Notes under the pieces: model-generated
What the model saw: only the letters and a program-made list of their open reading frames with translations
Databases searched by the model: none
What the model was told of the DNA's origin: nothing
Virus record (IMG/VR): IMGVR_UViG_3300021425_003921
DNA length: 64,000 nt
Direction: 5' to 3' (one strand)
Source: an uncultured virus (IMG/VR IMGVR_UViG_3300021425_003921)
Lineage: Duplodnaviria > Heunggongvirae > Uroviricota > Caudoviricetes
Part shown: in pieces, positions 6,627 through 55,776 of the stretch
Layout of the letters: every line of letters begins with the position of its first letter
Numbering within the stretch: the stretch's first letter is position 1
Position numbers and translations under genes: made by a program

Positions 6627-7526
6627 TCAGTTATCATAAACAATACCACTATAACCAAATATGTTGGTAGAACCACAAAGTTGTGTCCATTGTTCTTCAG
6701 TTACTCCCTTAGGAATAACTTCGGGATTTAAACTAATATATTTTTCACGAGCCATTAAATTTTGTTGAAATTTTTCTTCGGCTTCTGAACCCCAAAGATC
6801 TTGACAAGGGTTTTGTCCTTTGTTAAAGAAACCACGAACTCCACCATGGACATCGCCTTGTAAATCATGAAAAGCACCTACAAAGTCAGATTGAGCAGTT
6901 AGAAAAACCTGATTAGTTTGACGATTATCTCCTAACATTAAAACCCAACAAGTTGTATCTTCTCCGGCATAAAGGTCTTCTGGAAATCCACCGACTTCTA
7001 AAAATCGAGAACGGGCTACGGCTACGGAAGAAGGGAAAACCGCATTACGCATAATCCAAACTCCGTGGGCGGAAGCAGGCCACTCGGCATGGTCAGCAAA
7101 ATAATTACAATATTTGTGAGATTCAAATTTATTTTTTGTGGTTTCCATAACAATAATAGTATCCATGGGATTCCACCACATAACATAATTGTTAGCAATC
7201 GGACAACGATCGATTAAAAGAGATAGTTCGTGAAGATGTTCTGGATACCACCAATCATCGCCATCGAGAAAAGCAATATAAGGATTATTTCCTTCAGATA
7301 CACCTTGATTACGGGCTTGAGATACTCCAGTTCCAATTTGACGACAATAATTAAAATTATAATGGGCAACTAAATTTTGACATTCGGCAGTATGTGTCCA
7401 ATCCAATGGAGTTCCATCAACTACATAAACTTCGTAATCAAAAAAATCTTGGTTGCTGACCGATTCCAAACATCGATTAAGTAATTCGGGAGTAATTTTA
7501 TAAATTGGGATTACCACATCAAACAT
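6627..7526 (-). CDS. Glycosyltransferase family 2
   Basis: VVIPIY, VVDG, GVSQARNQG, AFLDGDD, GED motifs; start moved to MFDVV at 7526, overlapping the upstream stop. Confidence 0.9.
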   Translation of the reverse strand: MFDVVIPIYKITPELLNRCLESVSNQDFFDYEVYVVDGTPLDWTHTAECQNLVAHYNFNYCRQIGTGVSQARNQGVSEGNNPYIAFLDGDDWWYPEHLHELSLLIDRCPIANNYVMWWNPMDTIIVMETTKNKFESHKYCNYFADHAEWPASAHGVWIMRNAVFPSSVAVARSRFLEVGGFPEDLYAGEDTTCWVLMLGDNRQTNQVFLTAQSDFVGAFHDLQGDVHGGVRGFFNKGQNPCQDLWGSEAEEKFQQNLMAREKYISLNPEVIPKGVTEEQWTQLCGSTNIFGYSGIVYDN

Positions 7527-8334
7527 TCCATTCACCGCCATTGATTCTAAACATAGACCATTCGTATAACTCGGCCGGTAAATCTTCGGGACACTCTTCG
7601 GAAAAATATTTTTCCACTACTACTTTCCGACCTTCTAAATCAACTATTTCATCAAGATCGCCGGGGGTTTGGGAACTAATAAACCCGGTAGAAGAATTAT
7701 CATGAATGCGATAATACCATAACGAATCAGAAATAATTTCAGTTCGTGGGCGTTTACTAAATAAATGCAATAAAAACTCCGTATCTTCCCATAAACTTAA
7801 AGATTCCATAAAAGGACTAAAAAGCGTCTTTTTAAGCGTAATTCCTGATAACCATAAGGGGCGACGATACATAAACCACAACATATGATTTAGATCGGCA
7901 TAATCGGTAATTAATTCGTGGTGATTTACCCATACCGGCCATTTGTCATGCTTTCCGGTTTGAACTGATTTTAAGACTCGATGACAATCACCTTTAGTAA
8001 CTGTAACATCGGCTTCAGGATAAGCCAAATCTACTTCTTCAAGATATGTGGGATACCACCAATCATCGCCATCAAGAAAGGCTAAATAATCGCCTTGTGA
8101 AGCACTTACGCCTTGATTACGGGCTTGGCTAACGCCTCGTCCTGTTTGACGAAGGGGTGTAATTCCAAAAGAATCGTAAACTGCCGTTAAGCGTTGATAA
8201 TGTTCCCAATCTACAGGGGTAGCATCAACCACAATTAGTTCCCAATCGGTGTAAGTTTGGTTAAAAACCGAACTAATAGCCTCGTTTACTAAATCAGGAT
8301 GAACCTGATAAAGTGGCATAATGATAGAAAACAT
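7519..8334 (-). CDS. Glycosyltransferase family 2 (paralog of neighbour)
   Basis: SIIMPLY, ELIVVD, GVSQARNQG, AFLDGDDWWYP, WED, YYRIH. Confidence 0.9.
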   Translation of the reverse strand: MFSIIMPLYQVHPDLVNEAISSVFNQTYTDWELIVVDATPVDWEHYQRLTAVYDSFGITPLRQTGRGVSQARNQGVSASQGDYLAFLDGDDWWYPTYLEEVDLAYPEADVTVTKGDCHRVLKSVQTGKHDKWPVWVNHHELITDYADLNHMLWFMYRRPLWLSGITLKKTLFSPFMESLSLWEDTEFLLHLFSKRPRTEIISDSLWYYRIHDNSSTGFISSQTPGDLDEIVDLEGRKVVVEKYFSEECPEDLPAELYEWSMFRINGGEWNV

Positions 8335-8355
8335 ATTGAATCCTAAGATTCAATC

Positions 8356-8547
8356 CTATTTATACCTATCGTGTAACTCGTCGGCAAGCAAATTGTTGCC
8401 GATGTTGAAACAGATTAAACCACACAAGGCGTAAATCAAGTGCCATTTTCGTCGATCTTGAGTAATGTTCCACAACTTATTAGTGTGGTAAACTGTGGCA
8501 AGACCGCCGAGAACAACAAATCCGACACCGATTAAGGCTAACTTCAT
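8356..8547 (-). CDS. Small two-TM membrane protein
   Basis: 63 aa; GGAGATGA SD; two hydrophobic stretches. Confidence 0.7.
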   Translation of the reverse strand: MKLALIGVGFVVLGGLATVYHTNKLWNITQDRRKWHLIYALCGLICFNIGNNLLADELHDRYK

Positions 8548-8565
8548 GATATCATCTCCACTTTA

Positions 8566-8636
8566 AAGCCATCTTCAGCGTTCCGTGTAGTCGAGCCTTA
8601 CGGCTGTAGACCACTCAACGCCTCATCAGAGGGCTT
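8566..8636 (-). ncRNA. Structured RNA hairpin with canonical kink-turn and GNRA loop
   Basis: Minus strand: AAGCCCUCU-GAU-GA-G-GCGUU-GA-GUGGUC-UAC-AGCC-GUAA-GGCU-C-GACUAC-ACGG-AACGC-U-GA-AGAUGGCUU; nested stems, 3-nt bulge followed by tandem GA/AG pairs. Confidence 0.7.
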
Positions 8637-8664
8637 CAAGCAGGTTGGATAGCGTCAGTTATCT

Positions 8665-9315
8665 TCAGGCTTGGGCTTGAAGTAGGCTTCGCTTATACCA
8701 GTCTACATTTCCTGGGTTGATGGAGATACCCATTTCCAACAGTTTGTTGGCGATGAGGGCATCAGGACCATCGTAAAGCGTATACTTGACGAAACATTGT
8801 AGTTCGTCAGGAAGAGCGTTACCCGTGGTGTTGGTGAAAGCACCTTGGTTGTAGTAGGTTACGAGAGCGTCCCAAACTTGACCTGGAAGAACATATACAT
8901 CAGGGTATAGGTTGAAGGAAGGTTGGAAGTTGATGCTTCGTGGGTAAGGTGAACCTGAACCTGGGATACCATCGTTAGGAATGTTATCAGGGTCGAGGAA
9001 GTAGTCGGTGGTGTTAATTCGGACTTGCACATAGGCACGAGGTCCAGCGACACCAGCAACACCCGTGCTACCCGTAAAGGTAGTTAGACCACGGATCTCA
9101 GTTCCTGCAGCGACAGCGGAGTGAACACCGAGGGAAGGTGTTACAGCGATGTCTTCAATAACGACGAATTCGGTTGCAGTTGTTTCAGCAGGCTTGGTAA
9201 TGTTGTTACCGAAACCACCAACAAAGATAGAGGTTCTCTTACCTAAGTTAGTAGCAACAGTAAGTGCGGTTCCACGGCTTGCGTCCCATTCATATACTTG
9301 GCTTCTCATTGACAT
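8665..9315 (-). CDS. Candidate major capsid/structural protein, paralog B
   Basis: Paralog of 9353-10000; beta-rich and T/G/P-rich; NNC-biased codons; SD GGAGATGA supports start at 9315 (MSMRSQ). Capsid role is inference. Confidence 0.6.
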   Translation of the reverse strand: MSMRSQVYEWDASRGTALTVATNLGKRTSIFVGGFGNNITKPAETTATEFVVIEDIAVTPSLGVHSAVAAGTEIRGLTTFTGSTGVAGVAGPRAYVQVRINTTDYFLDPDNIPNDGIPGSGSPYPRSINFQPSFNLYPDVYVLPGQVWDALVTYYNQGAFTNTTGNALPDELQCFVKYTLYDGPDALIANKLLEMGISINPGNVDWYKRSLLQAQA

Positions 9316-9352
9316 ATTTTTCATCTCCTAAATTATTAATTCCGTGTCGGAA

Positions 9353-10000
9353 TCAGGCTTGACCTCCAGCGACACGGGAGCGTTGTTGTTGTTCGATAAG
9401 GCTTCGCTTATACCAATCAACATTGTTGGGGTTGATGGTGACACCAAGTTCGAGCAACTTGTTAGCGATAAGAGCATCTGGACCATCGTAAAGCGTATAC
9501 TTGAGGAAGCAAGATACTACTTGAGTGGTGGTGGCAGTTGTTCCATCTCGGGAAGTGTAGAGAATTTGGAAAGTTTGACCTGGAAGGACATAAACATCAG
9601 GGTAAAGATCGAAAGACTTTAGGATGTTTTCTGAACCTGCGGAGGTGGAATCGACAGCAGTAGTATCGATGGTTGAAGGAGCACCACGAGGGTATGGGCT
9701 TGCCAATCCTGGGATACCGACCATATCGGTAACATCAGGGTTTTGGAAGTAATCCGTCGTGTTGATTCGGATTTGCACAGCACTACCGATTACGGGTGAT
9801 GCAGCAATATCTTCAATTACGATGAATTGGGTGGCGGTCGTTTCTGCGGGCTTGGTAATGTTGTTACCTACACCACCAGTGAACAAGTCGTATTCACGGT
9901 TTGCCGTGAGTGCGACCGGTTGGTCGGTTGATGTGCGTCGTAGTTGATTACTACTTGCTTGTAGGTTACTCCATTCATATACTTGGCTTCTCATTGACAT
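9353..10000 (-). CDS. Candidate major capsid/structural protein, paralog A
   Basis: Shares MSMRSQVYEW, NNITKPAETTAT, RINTTDYF, LYPDVYVLPGQ and KYTLYDGPDALIANKLLE...VDWYKRSL with 8665-9315. Confidence 0.6.
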   Translation of the reverse strand: MSMRSQVYEWSNLQASSNQLRRTSTDQPVALTANREYDLFTGGVGNNITKPAETTATQFIVIEDIAASPVIGSAVQIRINTTDYFQNPDVTDMVGIPGLASPYPRGAPSTIDTTAVDSTSAGSENILKSFDLYPDVYVLPGQTFQILYTSRDGTTATTTQVVSCFLKYTLYDGPDALIANKLLELGVTINPNNVDWYKRSLIEQQQRSRVAGGQA

Positions 10001-10004
10001 ATTT
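9971..10004. repeat. 34-nt direct repeat identical to 9286-9319 (5' ends of the two paralogs)
   Basis: ccattcatatacttggcttctcattgacatattt at both loci. Confidence 0.9.
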
Positions 10005-10047
10005 ATCTATCCTGCCTTAATGGCTAAGGTAGAGTTGTATTTTTGAC

Positions 10048-10056
10048 TATATAAAC
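10048..10056 (-). promoter_or_regulatory. TATA box of the candidate capsid operon (leadered transcript)
   Basis: TTTATATAGTC, 48 nt from ATG at 10000 instead of the usual 22. Confidence 0.7.
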
Positions 10057-10076
10057 TTTTGCCTTGTGGGTAAGGG

Positions 10077-10307
10077 TCAATAGTTTTTATTAGCGATATC
10101 AAGACCTTTCTTGGCTCCATAAAGAGAACCAACAGTCATTAGACTAAAGGCAACAATTTGATTAAGTTTACCAAAACGAATTCCTTGAGCAATTCCAAGA
10201 AGTCCGCCTAAAGATCCGACAAGAGCCGTAGAGTAAACAATAGAATCAAGAGAAGTAAAGCCCATTTCTTGATAATAAGAAATCGGGTTGTTAATCAAGG
10301 GTATCAC
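10077..10307 (-). CDS. Small two-TM membrane protein
   Basis: 76 aa, GTG start, two hydrophobic Gly-rich helices. Confidence 0.7.
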   Translation of the reverse strand: MIPLINNPISYYQEMGFTSLDSIVYSTALVGSLGGLLGIAQGIRFGKLNQIVAFSLMTVGSLYGAKKGLDIANKNY

Positions 10308-53847: not shown

Positions 53848-53952
53848 TTACCTTTGTTTAGGAACACGCCAACTGTGAATAAACAACCAAGAAAACATTG
53901 TAAGAAATACTCCGATCACAAAAAGTGCTGCAAACCAATCGGCATTATTCAT
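53848..53952 (-). CDS. 34-aa single-TM microprotein
   Basis: MNNADWFAALFVIGVFLTMFSWLFIHSWRVPKQR with GGAGATGA SD. Confidence 0.5.
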   Translation of the reverse strand: MNNADWFAALFVIGVFLTMFSWLFIHSWRVPKQR

Positions 53953-54081
53953 GGTAATTCATCTCCAAATAAATGACTCCACGGCCACATAAGCAACCAC
54001 ACAACCGCACGAAACAAGTTCAAGAAGAGATTCCACATAGAATCTCATCCATCATTACTTGCCGTGTAGTGTAGTGGAAAC

Positions 54082-55776
54082 TCACAGTTCAAACTCATCA
54101 AGGATGCCGTCGTTATCGTCGTCGGAATCCATGTAGTCTTCTACGCCATCGTTATCATGATCGAACTGTCCGGTAAGGTCGTTACCATCATTGTTCTCGA
54201 ACCAATCGCTGAGTCCGTCGTTGTCGTCATCAAGGTCAGTCATGTCCCAAATACCGTCGTTATCGTGGTCGTAGCGGTAGTTTCCTACCATACCATCAAC
54301 TTCATCAACATCGAGGATGTTGTCGTTGTCGTCGTCGGTGTCTACGCCATCATTGAGTCCATCGTTATCGTGGTCACGCATAGCCGAGGTTCCATTGTCG
54401 TAAAGGTCTTTGTAATTGTCGATTCCATCGTTGTCGATATCAAGATCTACATTATCAGGAATGTTATCATTGTCGTGGTCGTAAATGTTGGTGTTGGGGT
54501 TGCCGTCATTGACTTCCTCACGGTCGTCTATGCCGTCGCCGTCATCGTCGTCGTCTTCGGCATCATTGATACCGTCGTTGTCGTGGTCCATTGGGTTGTC
54601 GTCGAGGACATCGGGGATTCCATCGTTATCGTCGTCGTTATCAATTTCGTTAGGGATGCCGTCGCCGTCGTTGTCATTGTCGCCATTCTGAGCCTGATTG
54701 TCTAACTGTTGGCCTTGTTGTTGGTCGGATTGTTGTCCTTGTTGGCCTTGTTGTCCATTTTGGGTTTGACCTTGCTGTTGCTCGTTTTGCCCATTTTGGT
54801 TTTGTCCATTTTGGTCTCCGGCTTGTTGATCAGTTTGCTGACCTCCCTGTTGTCCACCTTGTTGTTGTTGGCCTTGACCATTATCTTGTTGCTGGCCTTG
54901 TTGGCCTTGTTGTCCTGATTGTTGTGAACCTTGGCCTTGTTGGCCTTGTTGTCCCTGTTGGCCTTGCTGACCTTGCTGACCTTGCTGGCCTTGTTGTCCT
55001 TGTTGGCCTTGTTGTCCAGACTGTCCTTGGCCCTGTCCTTGACCTTGACCTTGGCCTTGGCCTTGGCCTTGACCCTGACCCTGACCTTGCCCCTGTCCTT
55101 GACCTTGGCCCTGCCCTTGTCCTTGTCCTTGTCCTTGTCCTTGACCTTGGCCTTGTCCCTGACCTTGACCTTGGCCTTGGCCTTGGCCTTGTCCTTGGCC
55201 TTGCCCTTGCCCTTGGCCTTGGCCCTGTCCTTGACCTTGGCCTTGACCTTCGCCTTGTCCACCTGCGTCGGATTCGCCGCCGCCTTCGGTGCCACCATCG
55301 CCGCTACCGGCTTGGGACTCTTGGAAATCAGGGTCGTAAGCATCAGGAATGCCATCGCCATCAGAATCGGAGTATTCACCATCATTAGGATCTGTAGGGA
55401 ATTGGTCCGTAGCATCGGACTTTCCATCACCGTCTGTATCAGCGTTGTTTGGATTTGTGCCCTTGGCATACTCTTGAGCGTTAGTCAATCCATCGTTATC
55501 GGGGTCGGCGTTGCCGTCGCCACCGTTAGTGGGATTGAGACCGTTGGAGACTTCCCAACCATCTGGGAGTCCATCGCCATCAGAATCAGCGTTGTTCATG
55601 TTAGTGCCTTGAGATTGTTCTTCAGCGTTGGTGAGACCATCGCCATCCCAATCGGCTCCACCGTCGGAGGGGTCGAGAGGGTCAGAACCATCGGCGGCTC
55701 CAATACCTGCACTCATAGCGAGCATTAGGGCAGTTAAAATTGTAAGCATCGTATTTTTGAATTTATTTGTCTTCAT
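54082..55776 (-). CDS. Secreted Ca-binding (thrombospondin type 3-like DxDxDG) repeat protein with central GQ/GQQ tract
   Basis: Signal peptide; many DxDxDG/DHDNDG repeats; (GQ)n; visibly higher GC than flanks. Confidence 0.85.
   Translation of the reverse strand: MKTNKFKNTMLTILTALMLAMSAGIGAADGSDPLDPSDGGADWDGDGLTNAEEQSQGTNMNNADSDGDGLPDGWEVSNGLNPTNGGDGNADPDNDGLTNAQEYAKGTNPNNADTDGDGKSDATDQFPTDPNDGEYSDSDGDGIPDAYDPDFQESQAGSGDGGTEGGGESDAGGQGEGQGQGQGQGQGQGQGQGQGQGQGQGQGQGQGQGQGQGQGQGQGQGQGQGQGQGQGQGQGQGQGQGQGQGQGQGQGQSGQQGQQGQQGQQGQQGQQGQQGQQGQQGQGSQQSGQQGQQGQQQDNGQGQQQQGGQQGGQQTDQQAGDQNGQNQNGQNEQQQGQTQNGQQGQQGQQSDQQQGQQLDNQAQNGDNDNDGDGIPNEIDNDDDNDGIPDVLDDNPMDHDNDGINDAEDDDDDGDGIDDREEVNDGNPNTNIYDHDNDNIPDNVDLDIDNDGIDNYKDLYDNGTSAMRDHDNDGLNDGVDTDDDNDNILDVDEVDGMVGNYRYDHDNDGIWDMTDLDDDNDGLSDWFENNDGNDLTGQFDHDNDGVEDYMDSDDDNDGILDEFEL
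54931..55260 (-). repeat. Coding microsatellite: about 40 GGN-CAR hexamers (55021-55260) followed by GGN-CAR-CAR nonamers
   Basis: Plus-strand ttggcc/ttgacc/ttgtcc arrays; variation mostly at third codon positions. Confidence 0.9.

Follow-up and report, generated by a model that had tools for sequence, protein, structure and literature searches.

A conserved K-turn hairpin behind the capsid-like genes of a marine virus group with a likely archaeal host

The closest described counterparts of the RNA element presented here are the K-turns of archaeal mRNAs, which are bound by L7Ae, a protein universal in archaea that represses its own leader (Daume 2017, PMC5539422). Until now, natural control of mRNAs by L7Ae has been documented mainly for the 5' leaders of cellular genes. 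L7Ae binds standard K-turns whatever the sequence at the -1b:-1n and 3b:3n positions. In the passages of Huang 2019 (PMC6298567) devoted to them, the l7ae leaders are described as weakly structured and of both polarities, none of the six carrying C:G at -1b:-1n, and folding with L7Ae was seen for all K-turns tested; a U:A pair at -1b:-1n is reported elsewhere to weaken ion-induced folding (PMC8191799). In addition, snoRNP proteins have been described as blocking RNA end trimming (PMC10557570), the protein-protected excision of C/D sRNAs from mRNAs has been discussed for archaea (PMC6009581), and the exosome has been reported as absent from Halobacteria, Methanomicrobiales and Methanococci (10.1101/699629), Poseidoniales not being among the groups named there, according to the parts of these sources that touch on the matter.

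The DNA analysed here, termed the window, is a stretch of 64,000 nucleotides that forms part of a 74-kb virus record (G000). On its minus strand, the spacer behind the second of two tandem capsid-like genes holds a hairpin, designated as site 1 (Table 1), the parts of which had been named in an earlier note; each of them is present on the minus strand at 8636-8566, and the surrounding gap, which the same note had called one of the longest between genes of the window, measures 117 nt and ranks fifth by length (78 minus-strand ORFs of at least 60 aa). The C-stem (8636-8628/8574-8566) is interrupted by a single C.U mismatch and leads through the bulge to the tandem pairs G8624.A8575 and A8623.G8576 and then to G8622.U8577, above which stand the stem GCGUU/AACGC, the 2x4 loop, the stem GUGGUC/GACUAC and the AGCC-GUAA-GGCU hairpin. 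With its C-helix, 3-nt bulge, tandem G.A/A.G pairs and NC helix, the element is, as judged from its sequence, a standard simple K-turn, in which -1b:-1n is U:A and 3b:3n is G:U. The coding strand is predicted to fold at -29.7 kcal/mol with the MFE identical to the centroid (z -3.76, 1 of 200 shuffles as good), a structure with which the K-turn is compatible at a cost of 0.0 kcal/mol; the plus strand folds more weakly (-22.1 kcal/mol, z -2.28). G1b lies 41 nt behind the stop codon of capsid-like gene 2, and the base stem of the hairpin pairs the first two G in the GGAG of the next gene. A second, inverted K-turn inside the 2x4 loop was considered and rejected, because relatives keep only purines there.

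Table 1. Positions of the features discussed in the text, numbered along the window.
Feature	Position	Strand	Remarks
Paralogous capsid-like protein 1 (215 aa)	9353..10000	-	60% identity to protein 2
Single-jelly-roll capsid-like protein 2 (219 aa)	8665..9324	-	Fold match to SPV1 capsid protein
Site 1 hairpin including extended base stem	about 8558..8643	-	Stem base reaches the next gene's ribosome-binding site
K-turn hairpin core, site 1	8566..8636	-	Forward polarity: C-helix basal, terminal loop on the NC side
Bulged strand, site 1 K-turn	8622..8627	-	L1-L3 = GAU (8627-8625), G1b 8624, A2b 8623, G3b 8622
Non-bulged strand, site 1 K-turn	8574..8577	-	U3n 8577, G2n 8576, A1n 8575, A-1n 8574
Inner part, site 1 hairpin	8583..8616	-	2x4 purine-rich internal loop (8615-8616 / 8583-8586), inner helix, apical hairpin
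Apical AGCC-GUAA-GGCU hairpin, site 1	8594-8605	-	Of the RGYC-tetraloop-GRCY kind
Likely Shine-Dalgarno site of the 63-aa gene	8551..8559	-	GGUGAU-like in relatives
63-aa protein, two hydrophobic segments (read from sequence)	8356..8547	-	Directly downstream of the hairpin
Two family-2 glycosyltransferase genes	7519-8334, 6627-7541 (span 6627..8334)	-	Downstream of the 63-aa gene
Second canonical K-turn hairpin (site 2)	53993..54081	-	G1b 54053, bulge AAU, 3b:3n U.U

The two genes upstream of the hairpin had been guessed to encode capsid proteins, a guess that is supported by their predicted fold. A model of the capsid-like protein built from an 87-sequence alignment (pLDDT 91) is a single jelly roll, and an earlier model (10 sequences, pLDDT 55) was left out of the fold search. 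Among 48,161 chains its best match is the SPV1 capsid protein (Z 8.6, rmsd 3.3, 138 aligned), the next rows standing at 6.6, and Foldseek places the capsid proteins of SPV1, P23-77, SH1 and HCIV-1 in the first seven rows (E 0.007-0.02). The protein has no match in the phage collection and no significant PHROG match. On the strength of the model, the upstream genes likely encode capsid proteins, a shared fold alone being no proof of role. Some homologues of about 400-450 aa contain two matching stretches and may be fused pairs. A third capsid-like paralogue follows the pair in L004, L078, L083 and L090, which by the scan described below are K-turn-free where distinct.

Four IMG/VR relatives (G001-G004) are 123-166 kb in length, two of them with inverted terminal repeats. 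The virus group encodes a HerA-like ATPase, Get3, IscA and a class II RNR, with PolD DP2 in G001 and MCM in another relative, and G001 and G002 share 36 genes that are absent from G003 and G004. Most of the nearest Atlas clusters are archaeal, and the three organism-named entries among the 120 listed homologues of the viral IscA are Poseidoniales, Poseidonia and Euryarchaeota. The archaeal setting that the mention of L7Ae had implied is thus supported by gene content, from which the host is likely a member of the Poseidoniales. The PF01248 (L7Ae) profile finds no match in G000 or G001-G004, and therefore any binding protein of that family would be the host's. Magrovirus group D, which the relevant passages of PMC5434244 define by a family B polymerase and a thermosome, was rejected as a home for these viruses, since PF00136 (PolB) and PF00118 (thermosome) match in 0/4 relatives and G001 carries PolD DP2. 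The Poseidoniales viruses named in the passages concerned of PMC13108676, PMC11706807 and PMC10160649 are head-tail viruses or the capsid-less group D. No description of the present group was found among the open-access papers listed, and it is apparently an undescribed, large archaeal virus group with tandem single-jelly-roll proteins. Contigs of the group also occur within bacterial MAGs (L089, L090 and L091; Rickettsiales, Acidiferrobacteraceae), probably through mis-binning. Many ORFs in the window between 296 and 25802 carry repeated (F/Y/W/M)-x-A-E motifs in proteins with hydrophobic C-termini, which we take to resemble protease processing sites of the phiKZ-type consensus.

Conservation was assessed in slots of 140 nt that follow the second capsid-like gene, taken from 88 sequences (the window, L001-L004, L009-L088 and L089-L091) and reduced to 70 distinct ones; L005-L008 were left out as duplicates and L092 as a weak paralogue hit. 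The metagenome loci are the best 80 of 550 relatives, a sample that leans to close kin, and since the relatives share kinship, the slot counts are not independent. The strict scan was based on U-GA and (G/A)A on opposite strands, a bulge of 3-4 nt, two C-helix pairs, three or four NC-helix pairs and a structure within 2 kcal/mol of the local MFE. K-turns were found in 40/70 slots, or in 42/70 when an irregular NC helix was allowed, against 0/70 reverse strands, 0/70 upstream coding stretches and 0/65 downstream ones; the shuffles yielded 4/700 and 2/700 for two variants of the scan, and it is 2/700 against which 42/70 is quoted. A relaxed cut-off of 4.5 kcal/mol, picked post hoc after one clade had scored 2.7-4.3 kcal/mol, gave 55/70 slots versus 1/70 and 14/350 in the controls.

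The 55 K-turns agree in two features that the scan did not require: L1 and L2 are purines in all 55, and 3b:3n is never Watson-Crick. Their bulges are AAU (19), AGU (19), GAU (12) and AGAU (5). Among the aligned window-type relatives, UGA on the bulged strand and GA on the non-bulged strand are invariant (17/17), and an apical RGYC-tetraloop-GRCY hairpin occurs in 51/70 slots. The K-turn is absent from 15/70 slots under the relaxed scan and is therefore dispensable in some lineages. The spacers of L003, L055, L067, L080 and L088 show tandem G.A pairs without a bulge, either a decayed or a precursor K-turn. A small hairpin begins no more than 5 nt after the stop codon in 45/70 slots (raw count).

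The K-turn hairpins fall into three types that cannot be aligned with one another and share little sequence, namely 17 window-like forward, 14 short forward and 24 reverse ones with the loop on the C-helix, which makes 31 forward and 24 reverse K-turns in total. Covariation across homologous loci, a check proposed by the earlier note, was found in two of these types, with shuffles that ignore relatedness and structures derived from the sequences under test. For the 17 rows of the window-like set, 93% of the cells are paired, 7/13 pairs change on both sides and the 23 two-sided cells were reached by 0/500 shuffles; -1b:-1n is C:G in 14 rows and U:A in 3. The reverse set (16/24, 15 distinct rows) pairs in 96% of cells, with two-sided changes at 8/13 pairs and 31 such cells, likewise reached by 0/500 shuffles. 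Both flanking helices covary, and the structural conservation on which that note had staked its reading is thereby present in the relatives. A covariance model of the reverse type found reverse-type hairpins alone (E <= 1e-4) in 37 sources and did not find the window's, and the polarities are therefore not alignable as a whole. In the capsid tree the forms cluster above an unresolved base, with one origin or two, and L064 and L069, which carry a reverse K-turn, nest in an otherwise K-turn-free clade. What is conserved is thus the K-turn together with an apical tetraloop stem, not one overall shape; the 31 forward and 24 reverse cases imply that a binding motif has been kept rather than a single architecture, as in the l7ae leaders (PMC6298567, in the passages on their polarity). 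In some reverse-type spacers (L001, L002, L051, L056, L066 and L071), the 5' segment either forms a small hairpin or pairs with the 3' side and extends the stem; both pairings seem kept, and a conformational switch is possible.

A role at the level of the DNA (a cruciform, a packaging or a replication signal), or a pattern due to chance or mere inheritance, would draw on the facts that the other strand also forms hairpins and that kin share traits by descent. It is largely refuted and very improbable, as the motif is confined to the coding strand (0/70 reverse strands in the strict scan), retains G.U and G.A pairs, shows covariation and is found again at unrelated loci, and the background in flanking sequence amounts to 12 weak matches in 318,480 bases. 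The site 1 hairpin is, with high confidence, a selected RNA K-turn.

The variation among the 55 K-turns also bears on the question of whether a protein takes part. A purely architectural kink, folded by Mg2+ into a compact 3' structure or serving, independently of L7Ae, as the site of a viral protein or nuclease, would suit the C:G found at -1b:-1n in 30/55 (the others being G:C in 17, U:A in 5 and U:G in 3) and the 3b = C or 3n = G found in 22/55, both of which favour ion-induced folding, as well as the hairpins that remain in the K-turn-free relatives (7/15 at z <= -2). We nevertheless hold it to be improbable: poor folding in the absence of protein is predicted both for the hairpin of the window and for the 14 short forward ones (G:C with U:U), opposite polarities lead to different overall shapes, and L7Ae bound every K-turn tested in the passages of PMC6298567 that report such tests. 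The U:A and G:U positions of the window, for which weak folding without protein is predicted (PMC8191799, PMC6298567), count for the L7Ae reading, and binding of host L7Ae to the site 1 K-turn is predicted with considerable confidence.

K-turns are not restricted to the spacer behind the capsid-like genes. The hairpin of site 2 (-32.1 kcal/mol, z -4.86, 0/200 shuffles in the genome scan) lies directly behind the gene of a TSP3-repeat protein (54082-55776) and ahead of a 34-aa hydrophobic ORF (53848-53952). It is common to G000, G001 and G002, G1b being 23-29 nt past the TSP3-repeat stop codon (29 in G001, 23 in G002), and G002 is devoid of the small ORF that follows in G000 and G001; in L106 and L107 the site 2 K-turn is absent. 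A second hairpin after site 2 holds the likely Shine-Dalgarno sequence of the 34-aa ORF in its loop. A third site was found in G003, where sites 1 and 2 both lack a K-turn: a canonical reverse K-turn, separated by about 60 nt from a 150-aa gene upstream and by about 240 nt from the next start. This gene, upstream of MCM, is putatively SSB-like, a name given only from its position and acidic tail, and has no significant Pfam match; the homologous spacers of G001, G002 and G004 contain no such K-turn. The spacers between the SSB-like gene and MCM are highly structured over 300-400 nt (G001:43380-43770, G002:117828-118126, G003:26338-26654), and those of G001 and G002 share a stem motif. They have no Rfam match, with two chance hits in the three 20-kb stretches holding them, and are possibly viral non-coding RNAs.

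In G004, which has no site 1 K-turn, an identical 33-nt UUCG hairpin stands behind both the capsid-like gene (L004, about 25 nt after the stop codon) and the SSB-like gene (G004:13937-13969), and through this repetition the slot looks like a generic 3' element. Across five genomes, 7 of 248 post-stop gaps of at least 60 nt contain a K-turn, 6 of these behind capsid-like, TSP3-repeat or SSB-like genes, and the post-capsid gap has z <= -2.5 in 4/5 genomes. The common factor is a position 20-60 nt behind the stop codon of a gene for which strong expression would be expected in a virus; for the genes of sites 2 and 3 such expression is an assumption.

The locus is also represented in transcript data. 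Eighteen metatranscriptome runs contain 24-47% of the sampled words of 8000-10100, and in 4/4 RNA runs one contig, of a kind that gives no strand, ends or level and may include DNA carry-over, covers the end of the capsid gene, crosses the hairpin and enters the small gene; a single difference inside the hairpin is listed, at 8584 in the inner loop. Since the contigs cross the hairpin, it is not an absolute stop. Contig depth over the hairpin is 8.2, 8.5, 10.8 and 25.7 against 24.9, 17.4, 12.5 and 80.1 for near-identical capsid contigs, a direction that fits a step-down, but contig depth can rank neither the parts nor their expression.

Known RNA classes do not account for the hairpin. The Rfam search that had been proposed as a further check returned no family for it (no match at E <= 10, with three chance C/D hits elsewhere), and at the gathering score there was none in the window and a tRNA alone in 12 relatives. 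A box C/D sRNA was rejected, RUGAUGA occurring in 0/70 slots (first 120 nt) and 3n being variable, and so was one with C'/D' boxes and guides, as the interior is paired and covarying, the 2x4 loop keeps no G.A/A.G and Rfam is silent. Archaeal H/ACA sRNAs are built with a K-turn above a pseudouridylation pocket and with an ACA box at the 3' end; by inspection, there is no conserved pocket and no ACA tail. The hammerhead core consists of CUGANGA...GAAA with stems I and III, and CUGANGA occurs in 3/17 window-type slots, 2 of them on the 5' strand, again with no Rfam match. A SECIS element was dismissed because the stop codon is TAA in 45 and TGA in 25 of 70 slots and read-through would add 1-17 residues. 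An intrinsic terminator was set aside, with five T in 0/70 slots (first 110 nt) and no minus-strand site. Low intrinsic stability, the trait of the l7ae switch, was likewise not seen at site 1, according to the predicted fold of -29.7 kcal/mol in which MFE and centroid coincide.

The hairpin might instead be cut out and accumulate as a small RNA bound by L7Ae, serving as a decoy or acting in trans, a reading that we rate as unlikely. For archaea, PMC6009581 discusses the release of C/D sRNAs from mRNAs under L7Ae protection, and the hairpin unit is compact and stable; against such a fate, it has no guide segments and no box C, the hairpin types have little sequence in common, and in 4/4 RNA runs the listed contigs over the hairpin include the end of the capsid gene, though libraries may lose short RNAs.

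Among the functions suggested in the earlier note, that of a 3' end element with a step-down fits best, because K-turns or strong hairpins follow the upstream gene at three loci, and we give a protective step-down at the 3' end an even chance of being the main role of the hairpin. The capsid operon would be transcribed through the spacer, host L7Ae would bind the K-turn on the capsid mRNA, and, once the transcript had been cleaved or terminated downstream, the L7Ae-stiffened hairpin would arrest 3'-5' decay. The outcome would be a long-lived capsid mRNA and lower expression of the small membrane gene and the glycosyltransferases. We infer that L7Ae would bind in infected cells, that the upstream genes would be the abundant ones and that the hairpin would act as a protective step-down. 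The earlier note had named downstream glycosyltransferase genes as those to be stepped down; two family-2 genes are indeed found downstream, but the gene directly downstream is that of the 63-aa membrane protein (8356-8547), on which the step-down would act first. This protein is conserved in relatives, with G, H and N residues kept. Its Shine-Dalgarno site was called on what we take to be the archaeal consensus.

The proximity of this small gene gives rise to the other leading reading, a damper in its 5' leader: L7Ae would lock a hairpin that covers the ribosome-binding site and keep the level of a possibly toxic, holin-like protein encoded on the capsid transcript low. The small gene follows 53/55 K-turn slots (51 recognised with a profile, 2 on truncated loci from their N-termini) versus 1/15 K-turn-free ones, its start lies 26-34 nt past the end of each of the 31 forward K-turns, and the base stem pairs part of the Shine-Dalgarno sequence in the window and, by inspection, in L031-type relatives. 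In G004 the small gene is about 24 kb away with no K-turn ahead of it, and a precedent exists in l7ae autoregulation (PMC5539422, in the part devoted to it). On the other side, the co-occurrence with the small gene rests on few independent events, and K-turns persist without the small gene or far from a start, as in L064 and L069, where the K-turn is 105 nt from the next start, at site 2 in G002 and at site 3 in G003. Partial overlap with or abutment on the Shine-Dalgarno sequence is seen in the window and the forward clades, and none in L064/L069 or at site 3. Moreover, the hairpin is stable without protein in the predicted fold, unlike the weak l7ae leaders; 30/55 K-turns have the C:G that occurs in none of the six l7ae leaders, as these are described in PMC6298567; and the holin match of the 63-aa protein is not significant (E 0.12). 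We thus consider the damper a possible but rather doubtful main role. In the forward clades, translation of the small gene may also be impeded at initiation by the hairpin, so that the damper and the 3' protective step-down are not exclusive.

Beyond the single hairpin, it is conceivable, and we propose it only tentatively, that the virus lineage placed K-turns at several loci time and again, in one polarity or the other, and so capped its most abundant mRNAs with a host ribosomal protein. If true, this would amount to a general L7Ae-based post-transcriptional programme for an archaeal virus, which at capsid-mRNA levels could draw L7Ae from the assembly of the host ribosome, RNase P and sRNPs. 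The element bears on how archaeal viruses set the ratio of capsid to minor proteins on one transcript and on the protection of archaeal mRNA 3' ends. Meanwhile, this marine virus family, which is widespread and transcribed, offers in its conserved and covarying post-capsid K-turn a test object of 70 nt, and more than 50 natural K-turn variants of both polarities are at hand for testing published folding rules.

None of the open-access papers listed describes a K-turn of this kind in archaeal virus RNAs, the terms k-turn, archaeal virus and L7Ae being mentioned separately in the portion concerned of PMC3432209. With the l7ae leaders the viral element shares a standard K-turn with a GAU-type bulge, placed in an mRNA stem-loop, the occurrence of both polarities and, in the forward clades, a position near the ribosome-binding site; it differs in being viral, behind a stop codon, stable alone, not engaged in regulating l7ae and, at other loci, far from starts. 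The terminal K-turn of box C/D RNAs, as treated in parts of PMC6009581 and PMC10557570, is the same L7Ae-type motif, and the non-bulged strand of the window reads CUGA, whereas the viral slots contain no RUGAUGA (first 120 nt, 70 slots), second box pair, guides or Rfam match. RAGATH-18, drum, HOLDH and Actinomyces-1, in the sections of PMC8191799 that present them, are likewise RNA motifs from comparative genomics with K-turns, and HOLDH has U:A at -1b:-1n just as the window does. In contrast with those orphan RNAs, the viral element matches no Rfam family at the gathering score, either in the window or in 12 relatives. REP-like hairpins are stable 3' stem-loops behind the upstream gene in bacterial operons. 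The viral hairpin resembles them as a stem-loop behind the upstream gene of a polycistronic unit, one of which G004 repeats behind two genes, and departs from them in carrying a K-turn, in belonging to an archaeal virus and in not being a high-copy repeat. As for the viruses themselves, SPV1 (Portogloboviridae), SH1, HCIV-1, HHIV-2 and P23-77 have in common with the present group the single-jelly-roll fold, tandem paralogues and a HerA-like ATPase, whereas the relatives described here are set apart by their genomes of 123-166 kb, inverted terminal repeats in two of them, PolD in one and a likely Poseidoniales host.
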